64,000 bases of DNA from an uncultured Nannocystaceae bacterium (GTDB taxonomy: Bacteria > Myxococcota_A > Polyangia > Nannocystales > Nannocystaceae), in the NCBI GenBank assembly GCA_964432695.1, contig CAYSPB010000001.1, positions 30,138 through 94,137 of the forward strand. The letters run 5' to 3'. A model generated the notes under the pieces. The model was not told where the DNA came from. It saw nothing but the letters and a program-made list of their open reading frames with translations, and searched no databases. Positions 5,302 through 55,461 of this stretch are shown here, piece after piece; position 1 is the stretch's first letter; each line of letters begins with the position of its first letter. A program made the position numbers and the translations under genes.

Positions 5302-5308
5302 GGCGCAC

Positions 5309-5758
5309 CTACGGAAGCGCCTTCTCGAGGATGACCACTTTTCCCAGCGGCTCGATGGTCTCGCGGTAGGAGATCGAGTCGGTCAAACTCTGCATCAAGA
5401 ACAACCCGCGCCCGGACTCCCCGTCCAGATCCGGGACGACGTTCTCGTCGGCCTGGCCGAACGCCTTGTCCGGGTTGGTGTCGTAGACGTAGATCCGCAC
5501 CATCGACTCGGCGCTCTCGAAGACGACCCGCGCGTCCCGTCCGTCCTGGTCGTGGGCGTGCCGAATGACGTTGGAAACGCATTCGGTCAGCGCGAGCATG
5601 AGCCCGAAGCCGACCTCGCCCTCCGCGTCGATGTCGAGCTGTTCCAAGAAGGCGCGGAACTTGTCCCGCACCATTGGGATCGATGCGTATTCGCTGGGGT
5701 ATTCGATCTCTACGCGAATCGCATCATATTCGGGGTCGACCGCACAGTTTGCTGCCAT
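5309..5758 (-). CDS. RsbW/SpoIIAB-like serine protein kinase (anti-sigma-type HATPase)
   Basis: 149 aa. Has an N-box-like ALTECVSNVIRHA and a G-box GESGRGLFLMQSLTD. Lies 7 nt upstream of the REC-PP2C gene. Confidence 0.8.
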   Translation of the reverse strand: MAANCAVDPEYDAIRVEIEYPSEYASIPMVRDKFRAFLEQLDIDAEGEVGFGLMLALTECVSNVIRHAHDQDGRDARVVFESAESMVRIYVYDTNPDKAFGQADENVVPDLDGESGRGLFLMQSLTDSISYRETIEPLGKVVILEKALP

Positions 5759-5818
5759 GAACGTTCCTTCGTGTCTCCTGGTTCTTCGGCCATCAGGACG
5801 CGGCGAACCAGGCTCAGA

Positions 5819-7807: not shown

Positions 7808-9795
7808 CGGCCCTTGCGCTTCTCTTCCCAAACCCGCGCCATGACCTCGCGCTCTTCTTCGACCGTACGGTGGATGTGGAACACCACGATCTCCTCGGTC
7901 TCGAAGTACACCGACATGTTGGTGTAGGTCTCCATGTACTCGCGACACCATGATTCCAGCGCAACGTTGTCATCGGCCCGAGCTTCAAAAGCCTGAACCG
8001 ATCGGTAGCGGACGTTGGGCGCGGTCTTCTCGACGAACAGGAACACATGCGCGGTTGGGACCGTCGTAGCGCTGTTCTGCGGGTCCCACTTGTACGACTC
8101 CACGTCGAACTTCTCGAGGAAGTCCCCACGCGGGATCGACCAGCCTTCGCCTTCGACGTGCGTGGACAGCTCGGGGTGCGCAACCATGGTCCACTCGCCT
8201 GCGACGAACTCCTCCTTGATCTGATAGGCGGCGCCCAGGGTCGTTTCGGGCTCCATGCGCGCGTCGACCTCGCTGAACGAGGGGGGCGCGAAGATCAACA
8301 CGCCGATGACACCCGCGATCCCCGGGAGCTGTCGAAGCGGGCGCAGCGTGAGCACCCGGAACATCCGTCCCATCGGCATCGAGACCATGTCGTACAGGAC
8401 GTCGAAACCAAGTCCGACCACGACGGAGGCCAACGGCACGAGCAGCGCCATCACCCCGTCGGTGGACAGCATGGGCAGCCCGGTTTTGGGCAGCGAGAAC
8501 AGGGACCACGCGAAGAGGAATGCGAGGCAGGGGACGTCGATGCGGAAGTCCCGGCCGGCTTTCATCTTCATCTGGCGCACGCGGAAGAGCGTGGCCAGGG
8601 CGAAGGCCCCTGCGGCGAGCATGAGGGGTGCCTGCGCGATCTTGGGATCGGGCGCGCGCGGAGCGAGCGTCTCTCGGACCACGTCGAGGGCACCGTGTCC
8701 GAGGCCGAACCCGAGCACTTCGGCGATGAGGCCCCAACCCAGCGGCACCAGCGTGGCGACGATGCCGTAGCCAGCACACCGCGCGAGCATGCCGACGCCG
8801 CCCTTGCGAAACGACAGTTCACCCGTGGCGGCTGCGGCGAGGGCTGCCAAGCCGAGCGCGAGGCTGAGCGGGTGCACCGAGGCGAGCAGGACCAGCAGGC
8901 CCAGCGAGATGCGCTTGGGCCACGGTCCCTCTTGGCTGCCACTGAGCGATGCGACGAGCATGATGAAGAAGGGCGCTGCGAACGTGTAGGCGTGCAGTGC
9001 GGCTTCGGACTCCAGCACTGGAAGCAGCGGTCCGGACGTCGCAAAAGCACACAGCGCCGCGGCGATGGTGGCCCCACCGCTCCTTCGCGTGGGTGCGCGC
9101 AGGCGCACCGACAGGGCGTACACGGCCGTGGTCGTCAGCAAGGACCACGTGGTTCCCAGCACGCCCCACAGCAACATCTGGTCGACGCGCGAGAGCGTGT
9201 AGACGACCAGCGCAAACGCATGTGCACCCAGCGGGTAATAGCCGGATGCGAGCACCTCACCAGCGCCCAAGCGTTTGAGCCGCATGATGTTCTCGTGTGC
9301 GCGGGAGGAGTCCGGGTACGGATAGTCCAAGAAGGCGCTGTAGCGAACGAACAGCAGCGCACCGAGGATGAGCAGGAACGGTGCGTGATCGATGAGCCCA
9401 CCGACGATGCCCGCGGTGCGGTCGCCCAGTTTGGACCGGATCTTCGCCAGCGCCGCGTCCCGGATGCGGACCAGCTCGGCGCGCCCGCCGTCCAGAAGGT
9501 CGTAAACGACGATCTGAAGGCGGTCGCTGCCACGGAGCTCTCCTTCGGCAGGCTTCTTTCTACGGCTCAGTCCGACGCCGATGATGATGAGCGAACCGAT
9601 GAGCGAAACCCCGTCGAAGAGGTTCAGCAGCGTCAGCACATGCACCAACGCCACCAAGACCAGTACCAGCCGTCCCGCTTGCTGCGGCAAGGTGGCTTTG
9701 GTCAGCTCGCGCTCTTTTCCGAGCACGATTCCGGGTACCACGAAGAGGAGCAGTCCTCCCCAAAGCAGTACGCGGATGATTCCGTTGGCGATCAC
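7804..9795 (-). CDS. Polytopic inner-membrane protein (about 13-15 TM) with a roughly 150-aa C-terminal soluble domain; function unknown
   Basis: 663-aa ORF with a GTG start. Hydrophobic throughout until about residue 500. G/C-rich third positions support this frame over the Arg-rich alternatives. It is the first gene of the minus-strand operon and is translationally coupled to the BcsB-like gene. Confidence 0.75.
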   Translation of the reverse strand: MIANGIIRVLLWGGLLLFVVPGIVLGKERELTKATLPQQAGRLVLVLVALVHVLTLLNLFDGVSLIGSLIIIGVGLSRRKKPAEGELRGSDRLQIVVYDLLDGGRAELVRIRDAALAKIRSKLGDRTAGIVGGLIDHAPFLLILGALLFVRYSAFLDYPYPDSSRAHENIMRLKRLGAGEVLASGYYPLGAHAFALVVYTLSRVDQMLLWGVLGTTWSLLTTTAVYALSVRLRAPTRRSGGATIAAALCAFATSGPLLPVLESEAALHAYTFAAPFFIMLVASLSGSQEGPWPKRISLGLLVLLASVHPLSLALGLAALAAAATGELSFRKGGVGMLARCAGYGIVATLVPLGWGLIAEVLGFGLGHGALDVVRETLAPRAPDPKIAQAPLMLAAGAFALATLFRVRQMKMKAGRDFRIDVPCLAFLFAWSLFSLPKTGLPMLSTDGVMALLVPLASVVVGLGFDVLYDMVSMPMGRMFRVLTLRPLRQLPGIAGVIGVLIFAPPSFSEVDARMEPETTLGAAYQIKEEFVAGEWTMVAHPELSTHVEGEGWSIPRGDFLEKFDVESYKWDPQNSATTVPTAHVFLFVEKTAPNVRYRSVQAFEARADDNVALESWCREYMETYTNMSVYFETEEIVVFHIHRTVEEEREVMARVWEEKRKGR

Positions 9796-26859: not shown

Positions 26860-28407
26860 TCAGGCTCCCCCGCGGTAGGGCCGAACGCTGTCGAGGGTGG
26901 AGTCCCAACCCTTTCTGCGCTTCTTCGGCCGGCGTCTCTTTCGGCGGCGCTTGGGCTTCGAGGTCTTCGAAGCGGTGGCTCGTTTGGTTTCCGCATCGTC
27001 CTCGGACGGCGTAGACGACGTGTCGGGCGCGGGTTCCGGCGGCGACGGTGGGGCAACCTTGCCGACCGATGTCGGCTTGGTGCGCGCCGATGCGGGCGCC
27101 CGCTCCATGGGGGGCGGCGCACCGACGGACACCTCCGGGGCGACCGACGCGGGCCGGGTCTCGACCGGGATGTCGTCTGGCACCGCCCGTCGTTCGGGAC
27201 CTTTACTCGCGAGACTCAACCCGGCGGCGCAGACGAGGGACGCTGGGATGATCGCCCGGATCCACCAGTTGATTCGACCGCGGTGACGATAGACCGGCGG
27301 CCGACGAATCGGAAACTCGACCGTCTGCATTGCCGACAGACTGATCTCGTCCCCGTCGTCGTCCGCAATCCCCGGCTCGTACTCGGGCGGGAGAACTTCT
27401 GTGTCTCGCAGCTCGAGTGGATCGTGAGGCGCTGGGACTTCGTACGCAGCGATCCGCTCTTCGTCCGGGAACCATCGATGCAGGGCCCGTTGGATCGACG
27501 CTTCAGAGATCTCCAGGCCGGCGTCGTCGGCAAACGCCTCGAGCGCCTCGCAGATTTCCAAGGTGGTGCTGTAGCGGTCGCGTCGTTCGGTGGCCATTGC
27601 CCGCACGACGATGTCGTTGAGGCCGGCGGGGCATCGCGGATCGATGTCGCGGGGCGTGGGAATGTCGCCTCGGAGGATTCGCCCCATGGTGCGGAACTCG
27701 TCACTGCCGGGGAGCAGCCGTCGCCCGAGCATCATCTCGGCCATGACCACGCCCAGGCTGAAGATGTCCGCCCGGCGATCCATCGGCTCGCACCGGTACT
27801 GCTCCGGCGCCATGTAGCCGAACTTGCCCTTGATCGCGCCTCCGATGGTGGTGAGGGATCGGGCGGTCGCCTTGGCGATGCCGAAGTCGGCGAGCTTCAC
27901 CTGGCCATCGAATGTCAGGAGGATGTTCGATGGCGTGACGTCGCGATGCACCAGCCCCAGCGGGATGCCGTCGGAGTCCTTCGCTTCGTGGGCGAGATGG
28001 AGTGCCTGGCAAAGGTGGTACGCGATCGAGACCGTCGCCGCGAGCCCGGGCCCGCCCGACGATGCGCTGCGACGCAGGAGCTCGCGCAGGCCGGGGCCCG
28101 ACACGTATTCCATCGCGATGTAGCCCTCGATCTCCGAGAACCCCTCCACCCGCACGATGTTCGGATGGTCGAGCCCTTCGGCAACCGTGGCTTCGCGCCG
28201 CAGCATCGCCTCGAAGCCCGGCTCGTCCCGCAGCGACGGGTGCAGGACCTTGATGGCGAACAGTTTTCCGACCGCGTCGGGCGCGATCGAACGGGCCAGG
28301 TACACCTCGGCCATCCCGCCATGCCCGATCCGTCGCAGGAGACGGTACGGACCGATGTGGATAGGCTGGTTGGCGAGGCTGTCGAGATCTGCAAGCGGGC
28401 CGATCAT
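26860..28407 (-). CDS. Hanks-type Ser/Thr protein kinase with one TM and a Pro-rich, polybasic C-terminal tail
   Basis: The ATG at 28407-28405 overlaps the sigma-factor TGA as ATGA. Motifs are GHGGMAEVY, FAIKVL, HRDVTPSNILL, DFGIAKA and GYMAPEQ. TM is WWIRAIIPASLVCAAGLSLA. The tail ends KPKRRRKRRRPKKRRKG. Confidence 0.9.
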   Translation of the reverse strand: MIGPLADLDSLANQPIHIGPYRLLRRIGHGGMAEVYLARSIAPDAVGKLFAIKVLHPSLRDEPGFEAMLRREATVAEGLDHPNIVRVEGFSEIEGYIAMEYVSGPGLRELLRRSASSGGPGLAATVSIAYHLCQALHLAHEAKDSDGIPLGLVHRDVTPSNILLTFDGQVKLADFGIAKATARSLTTIGGAIKGKFGYMAPEQYRCEPMDRRADIFSLGVVMAEMMLGRRLLPGSDEFRTMGRILRGDIPTPRDIDPRCPAGLNDIVVRAMATERRDRYSTTLEICEALEAFADDAGLEISEASIQRALHRWFPDEERIAAYEVPAPHDPLELRDTEVLPPEYEPGIADDDGDEISLSAMQTVEFPIRRPPVYRHRGRINWWIRAIIPASLVCAAGLSLASKGPERRAVPDDIPVETRPASVAPEVSVGAPPPMERAPASARTKPTSVGKVAPPSPPEPAPDTSSTPSEDDAETKRATASKTSKPKRRRKRRRPKKRRKGWDSTLDSVRPYRGGA

Positions 28408-29102
28408 GACGTCGCGCCCGAAGCCAGCGCCCGGCTCCAGTCTTGCGTTGCGTGGATCGATCGCGTCCACGCGGTGAGGTCCTGCATCACGAGACTCGCC
28501 AGTTGATTCGACGGCCGCAGCTCATCCATGAAGGTGCGCAGCAGTACGCGCGTTCGGGCGAGCCGGGTCGTGACGGTGGTGACCGTGATGTTGAGTGCCT
28601 CGGCGATCTCTCGGCTGGACTTTCCGTCCGCGTAGTACAGCTCGAAGACGGCTCGCTGTGGTGCTGGCAGTTGGGAGATCGCGTAAAGCAGGAGCTGCTG
28701 CTCCTGGCGTCGGGCCACGAACCGACTCGGCGTCGTCATCGAGGGGGGCTCGTATTGGCTCTCGTCGAAGGCGTCCTGTGATGGGCCTCGGTATCGATCG
28801 CGTCGCTGCTGCGCGAGCTGGCGGCGTGCAATCGAGAACACCAGCGTTCGAAACGACGAACGTCCTTCGAACCCATCGAGCGCCTTCAGGCAGCCGATCA
28901 GAGTTTGCTGCGTGAGGTCGGCGGCGTTCTCGGGATCCCTCGCCTCGAAGTACCGCCGAACGGCCGCGTAGTGGCGTTCGAAGAGAACACCTCGCGCTCG
29001 TGCATCGCCTTGCTGAACTCGCCGTACGAGTTCAGCGTCCTTGACTGTGCCGGTGCCCCTCCCCGCACCGGTCCTACCCGGTTTGCAATCAGACTCGAAC
29101 AT
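28404..29102 (-). CDS. ECF-type sigma-70 family sigma factor with a roughly 45-aa C-terminal extension
   Basis: Region 2 (RRVQQGDARARGVLFERHYAAVRRYF ... DLTQQTL) and region 4 HTH (SSREIAEALNITVTTVTTRLARTR) are present. No anti-sigma ORF is adjacent. Start position is approximate. Confidence 0.85.
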   Translation of the reverse strand: MFESDCKPGRTGAGRGTGTVKDAELVRRVQQGDARARGVLFERHYAAVRRYFEARDPENAADLTQQTLIGCLKALDGFEGRSSFRTLVFSIARRQLAQQRRDRYRGPSQDAFDESQYEPPSMTTPSRFVARRQEQQLLLYAISQLPAPQRAVFELYYADGKSSREIAEALNITVTTVTTRLARTRVLLRTFMDELRPSNQLASLVMQDLTAWTRSIHATQDWSRALASGATS

Positions 29103-43105: not shown

Positions 43106-46100
43106 ATGAGCTCGACGCCGCACTCTCTCCGCCTCGACGCCTTGCTCCCTTTTGGGAGTTCGTCCGCGTTCGACTCCAGCGTGCCGCCGTCGCGCACGGC
43201 CACCGAGTCCGCGCCGGCGCTTCCGGGCGTTCCACAGCCCATCCCGGACGGCGCCACGCCCTCGCGTCCCAACGTTCCCCTGAAGGTCGGTCGCTATCGC
43301 GTACTTCGCTTCCTCGGGGCCGGTGGCATGGGCGAGGTGTACTCGGCCTGGGACCCGCACCTCGAACGACGTGTTGCGGTGAAGTGGCTCAACCGTCCTC
43401 CGAAGGACCGCGAGGCCGCGCATCCGCTGCTGCGGGAAGCCCAGGCGATGGCCCGTGTCTCTCACCCGAACGTGGTCGCGGTCTATGACGTCGGAGAGGC
43501 CGATGGTCGCGTCTTCATTGCAATGGAGTACGTATCGGGCAGCACCCTGCGTCGCTCGCTGTCGGGGCTTTCGACGGAAGCCATCGTTGCGGCCTACGTC
43601 GACGCAGGATGCGGTTTGGCCGCGGTGCACGAAGGGGGCCTCGTGCATCGGGACTTCAAGCCCGAGAACGTCTTGCGCGGCAAGGACGGACGCGTTCGCG
43701 TGCTGGACTTCGGCATCACCGTGCATGCGTCGATCTGCGGCATCACTTCGGCGGGCACGCTGGAGTACATGGCGCCCGAGCAGTTTTCGTCGAAGACCTC
43801 CGACGCTCGCTCGGACCAGTTCTCCTTCTGCGTCGCGCTGTACGAAGCACTCGAGGGCAAGCGACCGTTCACCGGAGCCTCTGCGCCCACGATCATCGCG
43901 TCGGTTTGCAAGGACCCGCCTCGACCCTTCAACCGGGTCAGCGCACCCCACGTGCGAGCCGCGATCGAGCGCGGGTTGTCCAAGGCGCCCGATGACCGGT
44001 TTCCCTCGATGCGCGCGTTGGTGGAGGCGCTGCAGACGCCCGATCTCGCGCCGCCCGAGCCCAAGCACTGGCTGTGGCTGGGCGGCGTTGGGTTGGTGAT
44101 GGGGGGCGTGGTCCTGGCGGCCACTCGCTCTGCCGGGCCGTGCGATCCGTCCAACGCGCCTTCCACGGAGACCTGGACCTCGCAGCGCGCGGAGGCGGTG
44201 CGCGAGGCGTTCGCCAAGACTCGTCTGCCGTTCGCGAGGCGATCCGCCGACGATGTCATCGGCTCGCTGGACGCGTACGCCTCGTCATGGAGCGGCGAGT
44301 GGGCAGCGGTCTGCGAGGCGACGCGAAACGCCGTCGGTACCGAACGCATGCTCGACCGCAGTCGGGTGTGCTTGGAGCGTGGTCGCTCGCACCTCGCATC
44401 TCTGGTTGCGGAGCTGGTGCAGCCCGAGCCCATGACGGTCGAACGCGCCGGTCGTGCTGCGGCCGCGTTGCCCGACGTGGCGCGGTGTCGGAACGTCGCT
44501 GCTCTCGACGAGCTTGCGCCGCTGCCTCCACGCGAGTCCGACCGAGCCGACGTTGCCCGGGCGATGTCTGCCGTCGACGAAGCGACCACGCTGATCGAGC
44601 TCGGGCGCCCACAGGACGCGGATGAACTCTTGCGCACCGCGGCGTCTGTTGTCGACCACGTCAGTCATGGGCCGCTGCACGCCGAGCTGGCGCGCGCTCG
44701 GGGCCGAGCCGCGCGGGTTGATCACGACCTGCACCGCGCGCGGACCTGGCTCGAAGAGGCCTACTACGCGGCCTACGCAGCACAGGACCGCGGTCTCGAG
44801 GCCGACGTTGCCGTGCGCCTGGCCACGCTCATCGGCCGCGACCTCGACGAGCCGACCCATGGCCGGGCGTGGCTCCGGCATGCCGAGGCTGCGGTGGCGG
44901 TCGTGGGCACGCCGCGGCGTGAACGGGTCGAGCTCGCCCTGGCTTCCGCGATCCTCGACGATGCACATGGGCAGACCACGCGCGGTCTCGAGACGGTCGA
45001 GCGTGCGCTCTCGACCATGCAACCCGACGAGGACCAGCGCGACCGTCTGCTCCGTTCGCGCGGCTCGATGCTCCGCCGCGCGGGCCGCTTTGGTGAGGCG
45101 CTCTCCGTGCAGCAAGAGCGCCTTCGGCACGCGAGCCAACGCCTGGGTCCCGAGCACCCCGAAGCCGTCCGTCTGCTGGTCGAGATCGCGGCGATTCACT
45201 ACGGAACGCGTGCGCTCGACGATGCGCGAACGCTGCTGGACGAGGCGATGGAGCTGCACCTTCGTGCGGGGGGAGAGCGCTCGTTGGACCTCGCGAACGC
45301 GCGACAGCTGCTCGCGGCCATCGAAGTCGAACACGGCAACTTCGAAGAGGCGACCCGACTGATTCGTCGCGTGGTTTCGGTGCGCCGTCGTCGACTCGGT
45401 GAAGCGCACGACGGCACCTTGGGCGCGCTGAACACCCTGGGAGCGCTGTACACGATGCGTGGAGAGCCCGAACGGGCCATCGAGATCCACACGCGCGCGC
45501 TCAAGCTTCACGAGGAGACCGACGGTGCTGACTCGCTCGGGGCCGCCGAGATGCTGATCAATCTCGCGAACGCCCTCGACGAGGTCGACAGGCTCGACGA
45601 AGCGATCGTCTCGCTCGAGCGAGCGTGTGAAGTCTTCGCGACGCGACGAGGCGGGGAGCATCCGCAGACCGCGATGTGTCGTCACAACCTGGGCAACCAG
45701 CTCGCGCGCGCCGGTCGGCCGAGCGAAGCGTTGGTGGAACTCGACGCTGCCCTCCACGTTTGGTCCGAGACGTTCGATGCCGGCGACCCACGCTCGTGCT
45801 CGACCTCGCGGGTTCGGGCTTCAACCCTGCTCGCGCTCGAGCGGGTCGAGGAAGCCGGAGCCGCGGCCGATTTCTCGTGGACCTGCGATCTGCGACAGCC
45901 GCGGCCGTCTAGTGTTGCGCTCATGGCCGACGCCGAGCTTCAGATCGAAGCGCACCTTCGCCGCGACGATGCTTCCGCAGCATGGGCGCATCTCGAGACG
46001 ATGCAGGCCCACGCCACCCCGGAGCAGGCCCTCGAGCTGCAGCTGATGCGCGTCCGGATTCACGCCCGGTCCGGCCACGTGCCCGACGCGGCACGAACGC

Positions 46101-46174
46101 TCGACGCCATGACCCCGCAGAGCGACGACGAGCGCGCTCGAATCTCGCAGACCCGCGACGCGCTCGGCCTATAG
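43106..46174 (+). CDS. Hanks-type Ser/Thr protein kinase, one TM, long C-terminal TPR region
   Basis: Starts at ATG 43106 (alternative 43079). Motifs are GAGGMGEVY, VAVKWL, HRDFKPENVL, DFGI and LEYMAPEQ. TM is WLWLGGVGLVMGGVVLAA. About 700 aa of TPR-like repeats follow (e.g. LNTLGALYTMRGEPERAIEIHTRAL). The first 73 aa of the track ORF overlap the divergent gene and are rejected. Confidence 0.9.
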   Translation: MSSTPHSLRLDALLPFGSSSAFDSSVPPSRTATESAPALPGVPQPIPDGATPSRPNVPLKVGRYRVLRFLGAGGMGEVYSAWDPHLERRVAVKWLNRPPKDREAAHPLLREAQAMARVSHPNVVAVYDVGEADGRVFIAMEYVSGSTLRRSLSGLSTEAIVAAYVDAGCGLAAVHEGGLVHRDFKPENVLRGKDGRVRVLDFGITVHASICGITSAGTLEYMAPEQFSSKTSDARSDQFSFCVALYEALEGKRPFTGASAPTIIASVCKDPPRPFNRVSAPHVRAAIERGLSKAPDDRFPSMRALVEALQTPDLAPPEPKHWLWLGGVGLVMGGVVLAATRSAGPCDPSNAPSTETWTSQRAEAVREAFAKTRLPFARRSADDVIGSLDAYASSWSGEWAAVCEATRNAVGTERMLDRSRVCLERGRSHLASLVAELVQPEPMTVERAGRAAAALPDVARCRNVAALDELAPLPPRESDRADVARAMSAVDEATTLIELGRPQDADELLRTAASVVDHVSHGPLHAELARARGRAARVDHDLHRARTWLEEAYYAAYAAQDRGLEADVAVRLATLIGRDLDEPTHGRAWLRHAEAAVAVVGTPRRERVELALASAILDDAHGQTTRGLETVERALSTMQPDEDQRDRLLRSRGSMLRRAGRFGEALSVQQERLRHASQRLGPEHPEAVRLLVEIAAIHYGTRALDDARTLLDEAMELHLRAGGERSLDLANARQLLAAIEVEHGNFEEATRLIRRVVSVRRRRLGEAHDGTLGALNTLGALYTMRGEPERAIEIHTRALKLHEETDGADSLGAAEMLINLANALDEVDRLDEAIVSLERACEVFATRRGGEHPQTAMCRHNLGNQLARAGRPSEALVELDAALHVWSETFDAGDPRSCSTSRVRASTLLALERVEEAGAAADFSWTCDLRQPRPSSVALMADAELQIEAHLRRDDASAAWAHLETMQAHATPEQALELQLMRVRIHARSGHVPDAARTLDAMTPQSDDERARISQTRDALGL

Positions 46175-47244: not shown

Positions 47245-47706
47245 TCAGCCGCCGGACATCATTGCCGCGAAGCGCCGCTGAAGCTCCTCGGGGCTGACTT
47301 CTTCGAGCTGCTGGTGAATGAACCACCGGTGGCCGAACGGGTCGGTCACCTTTGCGCTGCGGTCACCGAAGAACTCATCCTTCGTTTCGCCCTGTTGGGT
47401 GCCGCCGGCTTCGACCACCTTGGCGACGATGGTGTCGACATCCTCGACGTACAGCATGAGTGCCATCGTCGAGTGCCCTGCGGTCTTGGGTCCGACGATT
47501 CCCATGTCGGGGAACTCGGAGGACAGGTACAGGTGGTCGTTTCCCAGTGCGACTTCTGCGTGGACGATGCTGCCGTCAGGCATGGCGAGCCGAGCGACCT
47601 CGGTCATGCCGAACACCGACGTGTAGAAGTCGATCGCCGCGGCCGCGTCGTGACACGCGAGGTAGGGACGAAGACGTGGGCCGGGGGGAATCGGAGGCAC
47701 GCTCAC
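47245..47706 (-). CDS. VOC-family (glyoxalase/bleomycin-resistance, PhnB-like) protein
   Basis: 153 aa. The pattern PYLACHDAAAAIDFYTSVFG ... HAEVALGNDHLYLS ... FGDRSAKVTDPFGHRWFI is typical of PhnB-like VOC proteins. Confidence 0.8.
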   Translation of the reverse strand: MSVPPIPPGPRLRPYLACHDAAAAIDFYTSVFGMTEVARLAMPDGSIVHAEVALGNDHLYLSSEFPDMGIVGPKTAGHSTMALMLYVEDVDTIVAKVVEAGGTQQGETKDEFFGDRSAKVTDPFGHRWFIHQQLEEVSPEELQRRFAAMMSGG

Positions 47707-47836
47707 ACCGACATGGTCTCCGTCCGCACTGCGAGGAGCAACTGGGCGCGGAGCCAGCCCTACAGCCGGGTTGATTGCCGAAAAAAACTACGCGGCGTCG
47801 GATCGAAAGGTCTCCAAACGGCACTGCGCCTTCGAC

Positions 47837-48775
47837 ATGACCCAACACAATGACTGCAACTGTGCTGCACCGTCCTCGCGGCTGGAAACCATCCTCGTGC
47901 AGGAGCTCGTCCGTGTCGACGCGATCGAGGCGTCGGACGCGTTCGAGGTCTTTCTGGCGCTCAACGGGTCCGCAATCGCGTCGCGGATTGGAAAGCTCGT
48001 ATGGCCACCCGACTTCAACCACCCCTGCCTTTCGAAGAATCCCCCTCGTTGGTGCTGGGCCGCCTCCGACGGGTGGGTGGACCTTGTGTCCCGCCAGATT
48101 CTGATCGAGTCCCTCATCGGAGCCGAGCTGCTCGATCGCCATGACGCGTTTCACACTCAGGCACGCGCGGTCGACCTTGCTACGGTCGTCGTCCGTCGCG
48201 CGATTCGAACCGAGCGTCTGTCCATCGAGCAGGGCTACGCCATGCTCGACTTCGTGGCCTCCGTCGGTTCTCCGTGCGGCAAGATCGTCGAAGGCAGCCC
48301 GCTCGCCGCGTTCTGTCGGAAGTACCCCACCGCCAAGATCTGCATGCTGGCGAGTGCACCCTTGCATCCGATCCTGCGTGATGGGCTCGCCTGGCTCGCC
48401 TTCGTGCAGCAGTCCGTACATCACGCCCTGATGGGAATCGAAACCGGCAACGCCGTGCTCGCTGCGACGCTCGACGAGGCGGCGCGGGACGCTGCGCTCA
48501 CGGTTCGGCTGGACGATGCGTCCGTCATCCTTCGCGGCGCCGGTGTCGACTCGAAGCTGCTGACGGAGAACCACCGGGCTGTGGTGGGGATGTACGGCCC
48601 CGGCGGCTTTTGGGGGAAGATCTGTGCCCTTCGGCCAATCCCCGAGATTTGCAAGTACATCCGCGGCGGATTTGGGGGACCGTTGATCGACATCCTCTCC
48701 CAGAAGACGGCGCTGGATCTCGAGACCCTGGCCCCGGCGCTCGATCACCGCTTGGGTGGCGTTGGCTGGGAATAG
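47837..48775 (+). CDS. Hypothetical protein, no recognised domain
   Basis: The plus frame has G/C-rich third positions, while the competing 390-aa minus ORF is Arg-rich shadow. Start is taken at MTQHNDCNC; the track start is 47771. 312 aa with 9 Cys. Confidence 0.55.
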   Translation: MTQHNDCNCAAPSSRLETILVQELVRVDAIEASDAFEVFLALNGSAIASRIGKLVWPPDFNHPCLSKNPPRWCWAASDGWVDLVSRQILIESLIGAELLDRHDAFHTQARAVDLATVVVRRAIRTERLSIEQGYAMLDFVASVGSPCGKIVEGSPLAAFCRKYPTAKICMLASAPLHPILRDGLAWLAFVQQSVHHALMGIETGNAVLAATLDEAARDAALTVRLDDASVILRGAGVDSKLLTENHRAVVGMYGPGGFWGKICALRPIPEICKYIRGGFGGPLIDILSQKTALDLETLAPALDHRLGGVGWE

Positions 48776-48804
48776 CGCGCCATGCTCCAGGTTACCCTCC
48801 CCAC

Positions 48805-50616
48805 GTGGAGGGACTACGGCTCGGTGAGGAGCTCGGCGCAGGTGCGGTCGCGGCCGTCCGTCGTGTGACCGATGCAGCCGGGAACGCGTTTGCGGGGAAG
48901 ATCCTGCACGCGTCTCGGCAAGGAGAGGCAGCTGCGGCGGAGCGGTTCGCTCGCGAGGCAGAGCTGGTGCGGGGCGTGGACCACCCCAACGTAGTTCGCG
49001 TGTACGGGCGCCGTGAGGTCGAAGGGCACGACGTCCTGTTGATGGAGCTCGTCGACGGACCGACGCTCGAGACCCACATCGCGCGTGAAGCTCCGCTGTC
49101 TTCGGCGGCCATCGTCACGATTGGACGTGGCATCGCACACGGGCTCGCGGCGGCGCACGAGGAGGGCGTCGTGCATCGGGATCTCAAGCCTGCCAACATC
49201 CTCGTCGCTCCCGACGGCACGCCGAAAATCGCCGACTTCGGGATGGCACGCGCGTCTTCGCTGGCAGGGGTCGATCGCGACGCGATGACCGTACTCGGGA
49301 CGCCGGACTACATGGCGCCGGAGAGCATCGAGCCGCTCGATGTCGACGCCCGCTCCGACCTCTACGCGCTGGGTTGCATCCTCTTCGAGATGGCGACGGG
49401 GCGGCCACCCTACGACGGTGCGACTTCGTTTGCCGTGCTCGAGCAGCACCGCACTGCGCCGATCCCCTCGCTCGAGCATTCCGGTTTGCCCAATGGCCTC
49501 CGGGCGACCATCGAGCGACTCTTGGAAAAGACCCCGGCCGACCGCATTCAGAGCGCGTCCGCCGTTGCCGAGGCGCTCGAGCAGGCCGACGCTCCGGGGG
49601 CGCTTGCGCTTCCTGAGAGTGCGGTTGCAACGGTCGGCCGCTGCGCATCGTGCAACGCACCCCTGGTCGAAGGCCTGAGCATCTGCTTGTCGTGTCAGGC
49701 GACCGTGCCGCGGCTCGCGGCTGGGGACCATACGGTGTTCGTGACCGGGCCTGGTGAGGTTGCAGCCAAGATGGACAGCCAGGTTCGCGGCAGGCTCGTC
49801 GACTGGCTGCGTTCGAACCCCACCCTGGGCATCGATCCTGCATCGCTGGAGAAGAAAATCCCGCGGCTTCCTTTTGCGCTGTTGGGCAATGTCGACGCCG
49901 AAGGCGCCAGCCAGCTCGTGACGTCCTTGGGCTCGTTGGGGTTGCAGGCGAAGGCCGTTCGCGGAGGTGCATTGGCTTTGCCGGAGGCCCGCAAGAAGGC
50001 GCAGGTCCTGGGCGTGCGAACGCTTGCGATCGTCGGCGTCTCGATGGCCAGCGTGCTGGGCAACCTGCTCAACGGGATCTGGCCCCTGGGTCTGGCGCTC
50101 GGGGCTGCCGTCATCGTGCCCACGGCCGTCGCCCTGCAGTCGACCCGCCCCAAGTCGAAGCTGGCAGGTGCACGATCTTCGCTGCCGCCGGCGCTGGGCG
50201 AACGCATGAAGTCCGTTGCGATCGTCGGTGCCGGCATGCAATCCAAGCGGCACCGCGAATCACTTCGTGGCGTGGTGTCTCGAGCGCTCGCGCTGCGATC
50301 GGCGGTCGGTTCAGATGCAAGCCTCGACGCAGAGGTCGCCGAAGCGATCGACCATGCCGTCGTGGCCACGGGTCGACTCGACACGATCGACCACGCCCTT
50401 GCCCACGCCGACCTGCAGCGGCCCACCGACGCGCAACACGCACTGATGCACGAACGAGACACCTGGACCGCGCGCCTGCACGACCTCGTCGGCACGCTCG
50501 AGTCTCTGCGGACGCGCTTGGCCGCCGCGGACGGTGCCGCGGGTGAGTCGCAGGCCGTCCTGGACCGACTACGGGCCAAGGTAGAGGCACTCGAGGAGGT
50601 CCAAGCCGATGTCTGA
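48805..50616 (+). CDS. Hanks-type Ser/Thr protein kinase with zinc ribbon, TM segments and a helical C-terminal domain
   Basis: Motifs are LGAGAVAAV, AGKIL, HRDLKPANILV, DFGMARA and DYMAPE. The ribbon is CASCNAPLVEGLSICLSCQ. Start is uncertain. An in-frame GTG at 48805 has no SD. An ATG at 48782 lies in another frame that would join after ...WRDY if one base were restored. Confidence 0.8.
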   Translation: MEGLRLGEELGAGAVAAVRRVTDAAGNAFAGKILHASRQGEAAAAERFAREAELVRGVDHPNVVRVYGRREVEGHDVLLMELVDGPTLETHIAREAPLSSAAIVTIGRGIAHGLAAAHEEGVVHRDLKPANILVAPDGTPKIADFGMARASSLAGVDRDAMTVLGTPDYMAPESIEPLDVDARSDLYALGCILFEMATGRPPYDGATSFAVLEQHRTAPIPSLEHSGLPNGLRATIERLLEKTPADRIQSASAVAEALEQADAPGALALPESAVATVGRCASCNAPLVEGLSICLSCQATVPRLAAGDHTVFVTGPGEVAAKMDSQVRGRLVDWLRSNPTLGIDPASLEKKIPRLPFALLGNVDAEGASQLVTSLGSLGLQAKAVRGGALALPEARKKAQVLGVRTLAIVGVSMASVLGNLLNGIWPLGLALGAAVIVPTAVALQSTRPKSKLAGARSSLPPALGERMKSVAIVGAGMQSKRHRESLRGVVSRALALRSAVGSDASLDAEVAEAIDHAVVATGRLDTIDHALAHADLQRPTDAQHALMHERDTWTARLHDLVGTLESLRTRLAAADGAAGESQAVLDRLRAKVEALEEVQADV

Positions 50617-52513
50617 ACCGACGCAGAGCTCTCATGTGGCCGAAGTTCTGGGCGCGCCCGAGCGTGTTGGATCCGAACAGCGGTGGCAGGTTCGCTTGAG
50701 CGACGGCCGCCGCGGTTGCTTCGCCCAGCTCCTTCCCGAACTCGCACGCGATGAAGCGGTGCGGCAGCGATACGTCGGAGACCTCCGGCGACTGCGAGGG
50801 GTTCAAGGTCCGGGGCTGGCGGCACTGCTCGATACGTCGGGCGACGACGCTGCGCAGCCGTGGCGGCTCCGGGTTGAACCGGAGGGCGAGACGCTCGAAG
50901 TGTGGATCGAGCGCCGCGCACCGGCTCCGGTTGCCGAGGTCTCGCGTTGGGGAGCTCAGCTAGCCGATGCCTTGGGGCGGCTGCACCGGCGCGGCGTGGT
51001 CGTGCGAGACCTGCATCCGCAGGTGATCGTGCTGACGGAGGCGGGACCGGTGCTCACCGATGTCGGTCTTGCGCGCGTCGACCTGTTGTCCACGCGGACG
51101 GCTGCCAGTCTCGTGCTCGAGGGCTCCCCCTTCGCGTCGCCCGAGCAGCTGCGCAAGACGGTGCTCGACCAGCGCTCCGATCTGTACGGGTTCGGCGTCC
51201 TGCTGTGGTTCGCGCTCACGCAGACCAAGCCTTTCGGCGACGACATCGCCTTGCTCGCCGACCCCGACCGCAGGCCCGCGTTGCGAAGTCTTCGCGCCGA
51301 GCTTCCCGCCGCCCTCGCTGCGTGCCTGGAGCGATGCGTCGATCACGATCCGGAGCGACGCCCGGAGTCTGCGTCCGCCGTTGCGGCCGTGCTCCGCGGA
51401 GAGGCCGAGGATTTCGCTGGGGTGGCCCGCGTCGCGTGCCAGAACTGCGGGGCGTCTCTTCTACAGGGGCAGCGGATCTGCTTGTCTTGCGGAAAAGAAG
51501 CCGTCGCCTTCACCAGTGATGCCGGGTTGGGTGCCAGGAGCTACCGCGTAATGCTGCGCAAGGTGGAGGAGACGGTCGAGACACATGCCCGGCTGCGGGA
51601 GAAGCTGGAGCTGTTCTCTGCCGGGCCCGTGCGGCCGTTGAACTTCATCAGCGGTGACATGCGCATGTACTCCAAAGAAGAGCGCGAGCGCAGCATCCCG
51701 CTGCCGAAGGCGATGTTCGCTGGACTGAGCGCGGAGACGGCCAACCGTCTTGCCACCGAGTTGGCGGTGCCGGGGGTCAAAGCGGTCGTACGCAAGGAGC
51801 GGCCGTCGTGGATGCCGGGTCTCATCGTCGCATCGGTCGTCCTTGCGTCGCTGGGCATCGTCATGCTCGCGGCCGGAGGTGCGGCGGCGATCGTGCCCAT
51901 CTTCGGCATGCTGGTCATCGCGTTCGGCGTCGGCTTCGCCGTGCACAAGAAGAAAAAGAAGAAGGTCGATGCTCGAAAGGCACCGCTGCTGAAGCTGCGT
52001 GCTGGGCCCGCGGCGCTGCCGGCCTCCAACCCTCTGGTGGCTCGGCTGGCGGACCTCAGCGCAACCGCAGCACCCGACGTTCGCGAGCGGCTCGGTCACG
52101 TCGCGCTCACGCTGCAGCAGCTCATCGACCACCGCGCCACCCTTCCGGCCGTGGAACGCAAGGAGGTCGACCTCGTCACGGAGCCTGTCGCTGCGCTGGT
52201 CGATCTTCTCGAGGCCGAAGTGGCTCGCATTGCGGGCATCGACGCTGCGTTGCCCACGCTGGACGAAGGGGTGCTGGTCCGCTCGCTCGCCTCGGCCCGG
52301 GCGCGGGGGGCGACCTCGGCCGAACGCAACGAACTGCTTGCGGGTCTACAGCGCTTGCGTGACCTCGAAGAGTCCCGGGCGGCAGCGCTGCATCGTCTGC
52401 TCGAGGCCACGGTGCTGCTGCGGCGTGCTGCTGAACTCGGCCTTTCGGTTCGGGACGAGCAGTCCGCGGCCGACGCCCAGGTCAAACAGGCGTTGGCGGC
52501 TCTGGGGGGCTGA
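50609..52513 (+). CDS. Predicted pseudokinase paralog of the preceding kinase (same zinc-ribbon/TM/helical architecture)
   Basis: The ATG overlaps the upstream stop by 8 nt (ATGTCTGA) and has a strong SD (GAGGAGG) 8 nt upstream. The catalytic loop reads VVRDLHPQVIVL (HRDLKPxN lost), DFG reads DVG, and there is no Gly-loop or beta3 Lys. The ribbon is CQNCGASLLQGQRICLSCG. TM segments are followed by KKKKKKV. Confidence 0.8.
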   Translation: MSEPTQSSHVAEVLGAPERVGSEQRWQVRLSDGRRGCFAQLLPELARDEAVRQRYVGDLRRLRGVQGPGLAALLDTSGDDAAQPWRLRVEPEGETLEVWIERRAPAPVAEVSRWGAQLADALGRLHRRGVVVRDLHPQVIVLTEAGPVLTDVGLARVDLLSTRTAASLVLEGSPFASPEQLRKTVLDQRSDLYGFGVLLWFALTQTKPFGDDIALLADPDRRPALRSLRAELPAALAACLERCVDHDPERRPESASAVAAVLRGEAEDFAGVARVACQNCGASLLQGQRICLSCGKEAVAFTSDAGLGARSYRVMLRKVEETVETHARLREKLELFSAGPVRPLNFISGDMRMYSKEERERSIPLPKAMFAGLSAETANRLATELAVPGVKAVVRKERPSWMPGLIVASVVLASLGIVMLAAGGAAAIVPIFGMLVIAFGVGFAVHKKKKKKVDARKAPLLKLRAGPAALPASNPLVARLADLSATAAPDVRERLGHVALTLQQLIDHRATLPAVERKEVDLVTEPVAALVDLLEAEVARIAGIDAALPTLDEGVLVRSLASARARGATSAERNELLAGLQRLRDLEESRAAALHRLLEATVLLRRAAELGLSVRDEQSAADAQVKQALAALGG

Positions 52514-52560
52514 GCAACAACCGAACGCTCGGACTCGGCCGGTGTCGAGCGACGTCGGCC

Positions 52561-53898
52561 CTACGAAGGGGGCTTCGGAAGGAGGCGGACCGCGAGGACC
52601 CAGACGGACAGGCCCGTGACGACGTTTGCGATGGCGATGCCGACGAATGCGACCCGGACGTCGTCGAACAACAGGCTGACGCTCGCGAGGGGGACATAGA
52701 GGACGCCGCTCCGCAGCAGCGTGAGCCCGAGACCGCGAACGGCATGGTCGATCGCGTTGTACGTTGCCGAGGCGACGATGAGGATGCCGTAGCCTGCGAG
52801 CGTGCCCGTCACGATGCGCAGGTACAGCGCGCCGGTTTCGAAGACGACCGGATCGTCCGTGAACAGACCCATCACCGGTTCGGCTGCGAACGCGAGGACG
52901 CCGAAGCCGAGTGCCGAATAGCCCAGGCAGAACGAAAAGGAGGTCCGCATGGCAAGCCGGGTGCGGTCGGGCGCGCCGCAGCCCCAGTTTTGTCCTGCGA
53001 TCGGTCCAATGGCCGAGGATAGGGCCAGCATCGGGATCGCGGCGAACGATTCGATCCGCGTCGCGACACCGAACGCCGCGACGGTGTCCTTGCCGAACGT
53101 GGCGAGGATTGCCGTCACGAGCGTGATGGCGGCGGGGTTGATCATGTTGCTGACCGCCGCCGGGACGCCGACGGCGAGCAGCTGGCCCCACGAAGCCCGA
53201 AGCGTGCTCCATGACGGGATCGTGAACGCCAGCAGCTTCTCTCGGACGACGAGCAGTGCGGCCGTGGCCACGAGCGTGAGGGCTCGCGATGCGAGACTTG
53301 CCCACGCGGCGCCTGCAACCCCGAGCTCGGGTATTGGGCCACCCCCGTGAATGAAGATCGGGTCGAGGATCACGTTCGTGATCGCTGCGAACACCATGAT
53401 CAAGCTCGGTGCGACGCTGTCCCCGTTGGCGCGAATCAGGCCACCGCCGACCATCGGCACGACCAGGAACGGCATGCCGAGAAACCAGATGTGCATGTAC
53501 TCGACGACCACGTCGAGCACGCGACCGTCGGCCCCGAGGGCACCGAACAGTGGCCGAACGGTGAGGAACCCGAGGGCGCATGCGATCGCGACGACGAGCA
53601 ACGCCAGCGCGAGGCTGTCGGTCGCCAGCCGCTTGGCCCCCTCGTCATCGCCGCGCCCGATCGCCCGGCTGACGATCGAGCTCGAGCCCGCCGAGAGGCC
53701 GATGCTCAGACTCGTAATGGTCAAGACGACAGGGAACGTGAAACTCAGTGCCGCAAGCTCATCGGTGCCGAGCTGGCCGACGAAGTAGGCGTCGGCCAGG
53801 TTGATCGACAGGACTGCGAGCACGCCGAGCACCATCGGTGCGCTGAGCCGGAGCAGATGGGCGGGTACGGAACCGTGGGTCAGATCGCGGGCGGACAT
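52561..53898 (-). CDS. MATE-family efflux transporter
   Basis: Starts at MSARDLTHGSVPAHLLRLSAPMVLGVL (53898). About 12 TM with the typical MATE N-terminal motif. 445 aa. Confidence 0.85.
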   Translation of the reverse strand: MSARDLTHGSVPAHLLRLSAPMVLGVLAVLSINLADAYFVGQLGTDELAALSFTFPVVLTITSLSIGLSAGSSSIVSRAIGRGDDEGAKRLATDSLALALLVVAIACALGFLTVRPLFGALGADGRVLDVVVEYMHIWFLGMPFLVVPMVGGGLIRANGDSVAPSLIMVFAAITNVILDPIFIHGGGPIPELGVAGAAWASLASRALTLVATAALLVVREKLLAFTIPSWSTLRASWGQLLAVGVPAAVSNMINPAAITLVTAILATFGKDTVAAFGVATRIESFAAIPMLALSSAIGPIAGQNWGCGAPDRTRLAMRTSFSFCLGYSALGFGVLAFAAEPVMGLFTDDPVVFETGALYLRIVTGTLAGYGILIVASATYNAIDHAVRGLGLTLLRSGVLYVPLASVSLLFDDVRVAFVGIAIANVVTGLSVWVLAVRLLPKPPS

Positions 53899-54096
53899 GG
53901 CCTTCGCTGGCGGGTGTCCCCGTCGCGCGGAGCCGTCGTACCCCACCTGCGGCGGACCGTCCCGACCCAGGGTCTGTTTCCCCCGTCGCAACGCTCACGG
54001 CGCGAGTGACCCGCGGTCTGCCCGCTTGGATCCAAAATGCGACCCTGGGTCGCGGGACTCATGGTTCTAGGACCGATCCGGCCACACGATGAATGT

Positions 54097-55461
54097 ATGG
54101 ATTGGTCGAAACGGGTGCATGCCAAGGAATGGCTCCTGCTGTGCTTCCTTGGAGCAGGGTGTGGGCGAGGTGGGTGTTGCGACCCCTTCGGCGAACCGGA
54201 CGAATCCGAGCCGGTCGGATGTGGGTACGGCGATCCTTGCGATGAGCTGACCGGCGAAGGCTGCGACGAAGAGGTGGAGCCCGAACCTGAACCGGAGCCG
54301 CTGCCCGATCCGTCTCAGTTCGGATGCGAACAGTACGGCGCAGCGACGCTCGACCGAGCCACGGAGGTGCTCGAGACGGTTCATGCCGCGGTGCAGGGGA
54401 TTCGGAGCGCGGGAAACTGGCGCGAGCGGCTGGCGTGGGAGGCGATGGCACGAACACGCCAAGCCCTCATCACCCCGCCGAGGGACGGCGATGCGGACCC
54501 AGGGTCCGACACGGACACGGGGGCAACGGACCCAGGGACGACGGACCCAGGGTCCGATACGGACGCGGGGGCAACGGACCCAGGGACGACGGACCCAGGG
54601 TCCGACACGGATCCGGGTGAAACGGACCCAGGGACGGCGGACCCAGGGCTCGATACAGACACTGGCACGACGGACTCAGGGTCCGGCACGGACGGCGGCG
54701 ATACCGACGGAGATCCGGAGCCTCCCCAGGCTCCGCCCGAATGGACCTTCGACGCGGGGAACTACGCGCTGACGGATGGCGGCCTGACGATCGAAGCCCG
54801 CTGGCGCACGACGGAGCCCACCGACTTCGGGATCCCGAGCGAGCCGCTGCAGGCTGATCTCCGCCAGCCGGCCACATACTTCGTCGACCACGCGTTCGTC
54901 GTCACCGAAGACGGGATGCCACCGCTGCTGCCTCGGGCCGGGGAAATCACCTTCTCCGAGCCCACGGCCTACGCGGTGCTCCTCGGCCTGCCCGAACCGC
55001 TCCCCAACCCGTACGCGATCATGCGCGCCGAGTTCTTGGACCTCTCGGGCGTATTCGACGACGCCGCCTTTGCGCCAACGAAGCTGATCGAGGACGAAAC
55101 GCAGATCTCGGTGAGCGCGCTCGGCGAGGACGCGGCCTGGATTTCACTGGAGGCCGCACCCGACGAGCCATCGACCCTGTGGCAGCTCTTGGTGGGGACG
55201 TTGAGCCGCTGGACCGTGTCGTCCCTCGAGGGGGGCTCGCCATCCCGGGGCCAGACCGTCGCGTTCAAGGACGCACGCATCTTCTATCAGGGCGTCGGAG
55301 GCGACCAGCTGCCGTACCCCAACGAGCCGAACTACGCCGTCAGCGGCCAATTTTATGGGTGGTTCGAAGTCGCGGTCGATGGCGGCGACGTGAACTACGA
55401 CGCGCGACTCGAATACGTCATCGGCGCCGAGCGTCCCGCGGTTTCGATCGAGTGCCGCTGA
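54097..55461 (+). CDS. Hypothetical lipoprotein with a DPGSDTDxGATDPGTT tandem-repeat linker
   Basis: The ATG at 54097 gives MDWSKRVHAKEWLLLCFLGAGC (lipobox). A Cys-rich segment and an acidic repeat follow, then a roughly 250-aa domain with no recognised family. Confidence 0.65.
   Translation: MDWSKRVHAKEWLLLCFLGAGCGRGGCCDPFGEPDESEPVGCGYGDPCDELTGEGCDEEVEPEPEPEPLPDPSQFGCEQYGAATLDRATEVLETVHAAVQGIRSAGNWRERLAWEAMARTRQALITPPRDGDADPGSDTDTGATDPGTTDPGSDTDAGATDPGTTDPGSDTDPGETDPGTADPGLDTDTGTTDSGSGTDGGDTDGDPEPPQAPPEWTFDAGNYALTDGGLTIEARWRTTEPTDFGIPSEPLQADLRQPATYFVDHAFVVTEDGMPPLLPRAGEITFSEPTAYAVLLGLPEPLPNPYAIMRAEFLDLSGVFDDAAFAPTKLIEDETQISVSALGEDAAWISLEAAPDEPSTLWQLLVGTLSRWTVSSLEGGSPSRGQTVAFKDARIFYQGVGGDQLPYPNEPNYAVSGQFYGWFEVAVDGGDVNYDARLEYVIGAERPAVSIECR
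54496..54690 (+). repeat. 48-nt in-frame tandem repeat, about 4 copies
   Basis: Units start at 54496, 54544, 54592 and 54640 (GACCCAGGGTCCGAYACGGA...). The first three units are near-identical and the fourth is degenerate. Confidence 0.85.

Follow-up and report, generated by a model that had tools for sequence, protein, structure and literature searches.

Gene Pair and Junction

Two adjacent genes on the forward strand, here called A and B, were analyzed in a stretch of 64,000 nucleotides (nt) from an uncultured Nannocystaceae bacterium (contig CAYSPB010000001.1, positions 30,138 to 94,137). This whole stretch, with a G+C content of approximately 66%, is called the window hereafter. Gene A was predicted to encode an active Ser/Thr kinase and gene B a pseudokinase related to it, and the features of both genes are listed in Table 1. 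The open reading frame (ORF) around A spans 48610-50616, and the GTG codon at 48805 inside it gives a product of 603 amino acids (aa). The public gene call on the identical contig also has products of 603 and 634 aa.

The junction of the genes has the sequence ctcGAGGAGGtccaagccgATGTCTGA, in which the ATG of B lies at 50609-50611 and the stop codon of A, TGA, at 50614-50616. The GAGGAGG in front of the B start is at the same time part of the coding sequence of A, i.e., it supplies the Glu-Glu-Val codons of a conserved LEEV motif near the C-terminus. A first-pass annotation of this DNA had reported an 8-nt overlap and a GAGGAGG inside the first gene, and both were found at the junction. From the overlap and the internal ribosome-binding site, A and B are predicted to be a translationally coupled pair in vivo.

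Table 1. Features of genes A and B, with positions in the window
Feature	Position	Strand	Details and basis
Gene A	48805..50616	+	ORF, GTG start, 603 aa; membrane-anchored Hanks-type Ser/Thr kinase, predicted active
A kinase domain, residues 6-254	48820..49566	+	G11xG13, K32, E51, H124-R-D126-L-K128..N131, D144-F-G, A171-P-E
A zinc ribbon (predicted), C280-x2-C283-x10-C294-x2-C297	49642..49695	+	Four Cys invariant, 65/65 orthologues
A alpha/beta domain, ~residues 305-390	49717..49974	+	AlphaFold2 strand-helix-strand-helix-strand, pLDDT ~90; motifs TVFVTGPG, IPRLPF
A membrane hairpin (predicted), ~residues 400-446	50002..50142	+	Basic flanks on both sides; hydropathy; AlphaFold2 helices 393-418, 426-447
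A C-terminal helical domain, residues 460-603	50182..50613	+	AlphaFold2 helices 462-602; conserved motifs RHRExLR, ERDxW, ALEEVQ
GAGGAGG, Shine-Dalgarno-like, for B	50593..50599	+	9 nt before the B ATG
A/B overlap, 8 nt, ATGTCTGA	50609..50616	+	B start codon and A stop codon
Gene B	50609..52513	+	ORF, ATG start, 634 aa; membrane-anchored predicted pseudokinase, A paralogue over most of its length
B pseudokinase domain (predicted), ~residues 10-262	50636..51394	+	PknB alignment; family-wide residue counts
B activation segment, DVGLARVDLLSTRTAASLVLEGSPFASPE	51059..51145	+	S161, T164, S167 invariant; position 162 always S/T
B zinc ribbon (predicted), C277-x2-C280-x10-C291-x2-C294	51437..51490	+	Invariant, 78/78 orthologues
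B alpha/beta domain, ~residues 310-398	51536..51802	+	AlphaFold2; GDxRMYSKxE motif
B membrane hairpin (predicted), residues 399-447	51803..51949	+	Hydropathy; AlphaFold2 helices 402-422, 425-457
B C-terminal helical bundle, residues 460-634	51986..52510	+	AlphaFold2, pLDDT 85-96; PAALPASDPLV, LDEGxxVRAL, GLxRLRxLE

Shared Architecture of the Two Proteins

Full-length A and B were modelled with AlphaFold2, each from an alignment of 31 sequences. The models were confident, with a predicted local distance difference test score (pLDDT) of 83.7 and a predicted template modelling score (pTM) of 0.80 for A, and a pLDDT of 83.3 and a pTM of 0.73 for B. Both show the same order of parts, i.e., a bilobal kinase, a short linker, a zinc ribbon, an alpha/beta domain of about 90 residues, two hydrophobic helices and a bundle of four to five helices. 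The full-length models were searched against the Protein Data Bank (PDB) and BFVD with Foldseek. A matched Stk1, PknA and PknE with template modelling (TM) scores of 0.82-0.89, i.e., the bilobal kinase fold, and B matched PknB with TM scores of up to 0.76, again the kinase fold. The match lists were filled by kinase domains and carry no information on the alpha/beta and helical domains.

The similarity of A and B is far beyond chance. BLASTP aligned them with 29% identity over 386 aa (expectation value, E, 2e-27), covering the kinase domain, the zinc ribbon and the segment that follows. The A-family and B-family profiles were aligned by hhalign with a probability of 100% (E 1e-42), and the 498 aligned columns extend from the N-lobe to the first part of the C-terminal helical domain. 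A and B are therefore paralogues over the greater part of both chains, including the beginning of the helical bundle. The two proteins had earlier been described as identical in architecture; the shared domain order stands, and the spacing between the Cys pairs is ten residues in both proteins instead of the ten to twelve given there.

Relatives were collected by a scan with one genome per species, which gave 80 loci; the lineages of all of them are Nannocystales, Haliangiales or Polyangia. The loci were read by tblastn and ORF tracing, and those with at least 1.9 kb upstream of B were taken as informative (n = 74). Residues were counted in 65 A orthologues and 78 B orthologues. The CxxC-x10-CxxC motif is invariant in both families and is predicted to be a metal-binding zinc ribbon. 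In B, the Pfam Zn_Ribbon_1 model matched residues 277-297 with 19.5 bits, below its cut-off of 25 bits.

The transmembrane helices of the first-pass annotation correspond to one hydrophobic stretch of about 47 residues in each protein, with basic residues at both flanks. The models fold this stretch into two helices, i.e., a hairpin. This fits an arrangement in which the kinase side and the helical bundle would both be cytoplasmic, with no extracytoplasmic sensor domain. Directly after the second membrane helix of B, six consecutive Lys residues were observed (HKKKKKKV; approximately 51950-51973, B residues 448-455). The basic character of this patch is conserved across the family, and its sequence is not.

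The remaining parts could not be assigned to known families. In Pfam searches with both proteins, neither the C-terminal nor the alpha/beta segment had a significant match, and the profile of the B helical domain had a best E of 0.14 against the PDB. The C-terminal 335 residues of B were searched by phmmer against 1.84 billion representative proteins, and only 123 relatives were found. The full-length ones have 539-718 aa, most of them 610-720 aa, and match at about residues 305-650, always C-terminal to a kinase-sized N-terminus. This argues that the non-kinase modules are confined to this architecture.

Predicted Active Kinase and Degenerate Kinase

The kinase domain of A matched Pfam Pkinase (PF00069, cut-off 31.7 bits) over residues 6-254 with 168.5 bits (E 2.6e-49). 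Its catalytic loop reads H124-R-D-L-K-P-A-N131. The Gly-loop glycines, K32, E51, HRD, K128, N131, DFG, T166 and the Pro and Glu of APE are invariant in 65/65 A orthologues, and the Ala of APE is Ala in 64 of the 65. By these motifs, A is predicted to be a canonical and active Hanks-type Ser/Thr kinase.

The kinase domain of B matched the same model only over the C-lobe (residues 92-258) with 50.4 bits (E 2.7e-13). In the HMMER alignment to PknB of Mycobacterium tuberculosis, the beta3 Lys is replaced by A39 and the alphaC Glu by D58. The HRD motif becomes V132-R-D134, the Lys and Asn of the catalytic loop become H136 and V139, and DFG becomes D151-V-G. In the B family alignment, no GxGxxG motif was found in B, and no Lys is invariant anywhere in the kinase domain. 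The motifs that the first-pass annotation had read in the two proteins, i.e., AGK, HRDLKPAN, DFG and APE in the first and VRDLHPQV, DVG and SPE in the second, are all present, and the loss of the Gly-loop and the beta3 Lys in the second holds as well.

The degenerate state is a property of the whole family. Of the 78 B orthologues, 76 have Ala or Gly at the beta3 position and none has Lys, and the His of HRD is replaced by L, V or I throughout. In the catalytic loop, the residues H, R, D, A, N and S were counted at the position of the Lys, and Q, V, L, N, D and S at that of the Asn. Because both positions are variable, they do not seem to be constrained by catalysis. The proposed division into an active and a degenerate protein is therefore conserved family-wide, with the motifs intact in the 65 A orthologues. 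A pseudokinase is taken here as a kinase fold without at least one of the VAIK Lys, the HRD Asp and the DFG Asp. By its kinase fold and the conserved loss of the triad Lys, B is well supported as a pseudokinase, and it is probably catalytically inactive. One B orthologue in a Haliangiales metagenome-assembled genome (locus L083, 5395-7272) was observed to have a catalytic-loop Lys (VVRDLKPAQ); it starts 88 nt after A without overlap. It may be a less degenerate state of the pseudokinase.

The activation segment is the most conserved stretch of B. Its consensus is D-[VI]-G-L-A-R-V-D-x-L-S-[ST]-R-T-A-[AS]-S...P-E, and T164 is aligned with T171 of PknB, an activation-loop phosphosite.

The mean pairwise identities of A and B were compared domain by domain over the same 64 genomes. 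They were 0.49 for both proteins in the N-lobe, 0.62 (A) and 0.54 (B) in the C-lobe, 0.75 and 0.76 in the activation segment, 0.47 and 0.63 in the zinc ribbon, and 0.44 and 0.54 in the helical domain. By these values, B evolves about as slowly as A and appears to be an old pseudokinase under purifying selection. The conserved degenerate motifs, together with this A-like rate, argue that B is selected and not decaying.

Conservation of the Pair

Homologues of B are full-length down to 42% identity, and the named ones all belong to Myxococcota, i.e., Nannocystaceae, Nannocystis exedens, Enhygromyxa salina and 'Myxococcales' metagenome-assembled genomes. Homologues of A were found likewise, and also in Haliangiales, Kofleriaceae and Paraliomyxa. 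The pair recurs in about 70 independent genomes.

A full A orthologue lies directly upstream of B on the same strand in 67 of the 74 informative loci, and two more loci have an A truncated by the contig. In the reverse search, four loci were found through diverse A homologues. The gene immediately downstream of A is of the B type and has the degenerate motifs in all four, and the overlap is 4 nt in three of them. Conservation of the two genes as neighbours had been set as a test by the first-pass annotation, and these counts answer it from both sides.

Stop and start codons overlap at 60 of 69 junctions. The most frequent form is a 4-nt overlap, ATGA or GTGA (52/69, including loci L061 and L077). 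The 8-nt overlap of the window was found in seven junctions, which belong to its closest relatives and include L004 on re-reading, and a 1-nt overlap was found in one. At most overlapping junctions, the sequence ctcgaggagg encodes LEEV near the C-terminus of A.

At least 12 genomes have two complete A-B pairs (locus pairs L002/L053, L005/L042, L003/L048, L004/L049, L008/L044, L001/L043, L016/L036, L027/L067, L038/L056, L039/L062, L045/L055 and L064/L072), and the copies are 39-48% identical in A and in B. Because two pairs are present per genome and have diverged alike in A and B, the duplication must be an old one that took in the whole pair, and A and B have stayed together in each copy. L004, the closest relative of the window, was observed to hold two pairs, so a second pair probably lies elsewhere in the genome of the window.

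An apparent A-B fusion ORF of 1250 aa in L061 and L077 was rejected. It comes from a frameshift inside A, and the GTGA junction is intact in the other frame. In these loci from Kofleriaceae/Myxococcales metagenome-assembled genomes (L061 at about 5500-6060, L077 at about 5400-6010), A is frameshifted near residue 500, and the normal C-terminus lies in another frame. The frameshifts are either assembly errors or recent inactivation.

Proposed Mechanism and Alternatives

The reading that we favor, and that we hold to be somewhat probable, is a two-gene operon in which an active kinase and its coupled pseudokinase paralogue form a membrane heteromer, with B as regulator or phospho-acceptor. A and B are a self-contained unit of two genes that goes back to the duplication of one ancestral gene with a kinase, zinc ribbon, alpha/beta domain, hairpin and helical bundle. 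Afterward, A would have kept catalysis, and B lost the residues that position ATP and Mg while strong selection maintained it. At the end of A, ribosomes would re-initiate on B by way of the overlap between stop and start codon and the Shine-Dalgarno sequence inside A. Roughly equimolar A and B would then be inserted side by side in the inner membrane with their globular domains in the cytoplasm, and contact between them would be made by the non-kinase modules that they have in common, i.e., the homologous zinc ribbons, alpha/beta domains, hairpins and helical bundles. B would be the dedicated partner of A, i.e., an allosteric regulator, a phospho-acceptor scaffold or both. Phosphorylation of S161, S/T162, T164 and S167 of B by A would create or switch an output surface.

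Heteromer formation and phosphorylation of B by A are plausible from the gene linkage and the sequences, and a heterodimer would agree with all of the data. The first-pass annotation had suggested a 1:1 co-assembly in the membrane; the co-occurrence of both genes, in 67/74 and 4/4 loci, agrees with it, and the heteromer itself is suggested by the linkage. A fuller version is held more tentatively, and we rate it as possible and somewhat short of probable. It describes a kinase:pseudokinase heteromer that evolved independently in Nannocystales/Haliangiales, consists of two paralogues alike over nearly their whole length, is encoded by one coupled operon and assembled in the inner membrane, has B as both allosteric partner and phospho-acceptor hub, and signals through cytoplasmic zinc-ribbon, alpha/beta and helical-bundle modules of no other family.

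Several observations weigh against the heteromer, and they are given here with the alternatives that they bear on. The first alternative, which we consider unlikely, is that no complex is formed. A and B would be tandem paralogues that are co-expressed and act separately, with B as a decoy or competitor for the substrates or docking partners of A, or as an independent scaffold, and their adjacency could be left over from tandem duplication. At nine of the 69 junctions, all in the genus Nannocystis, A and B are separated by apparent gaps of 52-277 nt, so that these pairs are uncoupled. The A proteins of Nannocystis retain LEEV without the overlap, which argues that gaggagg is a protein feature that doubles as a ribosome-binding site. 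Seven B genes of an Enhygromyxa-type clade have no A upstream (L029, L040, L041, L046, L047, L051 and L054). From these gaps and orphan B genes, the pairing is strong and not absolute.

The pairwise distance matrices of A and B are highly correlated (Mantel r = 0.94, reached by 0 of 2000 permutations), which is expected from linkage and shared descent and is no proof of contact. A domain-by-domain partial Mantel analysis gave no positive signal for an A/B interface. No FHA, phosphatase or other partner gene was found near the pair in the window or in the related loci. A PknB-style back-to-back dimer of N-lobes was considered and is not supported, as equivalents of R10, L33 and D76 were not seen in A when the alignments were inspected by eye.

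However, adjacency, order and overlap were retained while the proteins diverged to about 40% identity, and the arrangement was retained again after duplication of the whole pair. Local synteny of myxobacterial kinomes is otherwise reported to be poor (PMC2887360, citing Perez 2008), so the conservation of the A-B pair stands out. The common non-kinase modules, restricted to this architecture, also argue against separate action.

The second alternative is that B is not inactive. It would be a Lys-independent nucleotide binder, as proposed for WNK, ULK4 and DLHK, or would catalyze another reaction, as SelO and SidJ do, and A and B would be enzymes in series. Nucleotide binding or an atypical activity of B is conceivable. 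D134 is kept in 69 of the 78 orthologues (Asn in seven) and D151 in all 78, alongside several conserved Arg residues. R52, R54, R86, R88 and R133 are invariant or nearly so, and within the degenerate Gly-loop region R25 comes close to invariance. The pseudokinase domain of B is about as conserved as the kinase domain of A, and bacterial families without the Lys have been modelled to bind ATP through arginines (PMC12599244). Against this stand the freely varying Lys and Asn positions of the catalytic loop, the seven members with Asn for D134, and the lack of both an invariant Lys and a GxGxxG. The conservation peak also lies in the activation segment and not in the nucleotide pocket. We therefore rate an enzymatic B as rather improbable.

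The third alternative, an anti-phage defense module, is very improbable. Among the kinase models of PADLOC (PD-T4-6, mad6 and PglW), E values reached 1.9e-73 for A and 8.9e-33 for B, and the NCBIfam matches include MAD6 and PglW. However, the matches span the generic kinase domain only and lie far under the curated full-length cut-offs, no effector- or methylase-type defense gene is nearby in the window, and the 80 related loci have no third conserved gene around the pair. The last alternative, a decaying duplicate on the way to a pseudogene, would account for the loss of canonical catalytic residues in B and is refuted by the conservation data, as B is intact and full-length in 78 genomes, about as conserved as A by domain identities, and fixed in the same degenerate pattern in relatives down to 38-42% identity.

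Genomic Neighborhood and Other Observations

In the window, the pair has as neighbors genes for UvrB, a Ser/Thr kinase with TPR, a GNAT acetyltransferase, a glyoxalase, a lineage-specific hypothetical protein, a MATE transporter and ThiE. By ORF clustering over the 80 loci and the window, no conserved gene was found around the pair besides A and B.

A hypothetical gene of 312-334 aa (47771/47837-48775, forward strand) ends 29 nt before the start of A. Pfam gave no match for it, and none of the 80 related loci has a homologue. Co-transcription of this gene and the pair may therefore occur, in the lineage of the window only. No sigma-70-like promoter was found at 47500-52800, and terminator-like matches there were no commoner than in shuffled sequence. 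The tRNA and Rfam scans of the window found nothing.

The loci of the orphan B genes have a common, divergently transcribed gene of 184 aa (MQVTGHVIRSRY), which lies at 5053-5607 on the reverse strand in L029. In L029, L040 and L054, a conserved gene of 166-184 aa (MSETAVRVDLRQATL) was also found downstream of the orphan B (8038-8592, forward strand, in L029). These genes may encode alternative partners of B.

Two further Ser/Thr kinase genes were observed in the window, at 43265-46174 on the forward strand and at about 26860-28470 on the reverse strand, one of them with a long TPR region. Such a density of kinase genes is typical of myxobacteria. The gene at 54037-55461 (forward strand) has about four tandem repeats of 48 nt at 54494-54681, which encode an acidic repeat rich in D, T, G and P (DPGSDTDTGATDPGTT). 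No Pfam match was found for this gene.

Comparison with Known Systems

The cataloguing of bacterial Ser/Thr pseudokinases is recent, and a partner or function is known for hardly any of them (PMC12599244). An atlas and a review, both of 2025, arrange about 300,000 bacterial Ser/Thr kinases in 42 families, of which seven are pseudokinase families, i.e., ActPs1-3, GLW, CP1, DYD and DLHK. Myxococcota are represented there by two families only, Myxo1 and Myxo2, and neither is among the seven. The atlas and review make no mention of the zinc-ribbon, alpha/beta and helical modules or of a partner kinase in the same operon. The remark of the first-pass annotation that such pairs are little explored in bacteria agrees with these sources, in which no such pair appears. 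A literature search, incomplete in its coverage, also gave no description of the B family or of an operonic bacterial pair of Hanks kinase and pseudokinase. In Myxococcus xanthus, 11 pseudokinases are reported among 99 Ser/Thr kinases (PMC6791715).

B resembles the seven catalogued families, which are conserved proteins of the Hanks fold without the VAIK Lys, and judged by their descriptions it lies outside all of them. In the GLW family, HRD is replaced by GLW and the DFG Asp is missing from 100% of members, whereas B has [LVI]RD and an invariant D151. The DLHK family is soluble with helicase/DNA2 domains C-terminal to the kinase, whereas B has a membrane hairpin and no helicase domain. ActPs3 is actinobacterial; none of the three catalytic motifs is preserved in it, and most of the activation loop is missing from at least half of its members. 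In contrast, B belongs to Myxococcota, keeps D134 and D151, and has a full-length invariant activation segment.

By sequence, B appears to represent a previously uncatalogued bacterial pseudokinase family that is tied to a cognate kinase and has new accessory domains. The family comes with a likely partner, i.e., a paralogue predicted to be active in the same, apparently coupled operon in about 70 genomes. Cultured species are among the carriers, namely Nannocystis exedens, N. punicea, Enhygromyxa salina and Paraliomyxa miuraensis. The pair defines three uncharacterized cytoplasmic modules, and its ancient duplication into two pairs is a natural experiment in partner specificity. It raises the questions of whether a bacterial pseudokinase controls its cognate kinase allosterically and whether the activation loop of B is a substrate of A. 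It is a good test case for the role of bacterial pseudokinases.

If A phosphorylates B, the nearest parallel in function is that of PknB and MviN. In M. tuberculosis, PknB phosphorylates the pseudokinase domain of membrane-anchored MviN (MurJ; ActPs3), and FhaA is recruited (PMC12599244). The likeness lies in a Hanks kinase that acts on a membrane-anchored cytoplasmic pseudokinase, which then becomes a docking scaffold. However, the pseudokinase of MviN forms one chain with a lipid II flippase, is no full-length paralogue of PknB and shares no operon with it. EssB/YukC of type VIIb secretion is another membrane protein of bacteria; it has a pseudokinase fold in the cytoplasm and acts as a structural hub. 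It differs in having no partner kinase, in its high divergence from Hanks kinases and in being part of a secretion machine; no secretion genes were found near the A-B pair.

PknA and PknB of Actinobacteria are adjacent, co-transcribed and membrane-anchored Hanks paralogues that cooperate and phosphorylate each other. They differ from A and B in that both are active, have other extracellular and C-terminal regions (PASTA in PknB), and belong to a larger cell-division operon.

In eukaryotes, an active kinase and a degenerate paralogue that regulates or scaffolds it are known from HER2-HER3, JAK JH1-JH2, LKB1-STRAD, RAF-KSR and the plant tandem kinase-pseudokinase proteins. Their pseudokinases are under purifying selection, as B appears to be. 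These partners are encoded by separate genes or in one fused chain, in contrast to the overlapping genes of a bacterial operon, and have unrelated non-kinase domains, and the contact of A and B is suggested by their linkage. If the heteromer is true, the pairing of kinase and pseudokinase would have arisen independently in bacteria, and A and B would parallel HER2-HER3 or JAK-type regulation in a prokaryote.

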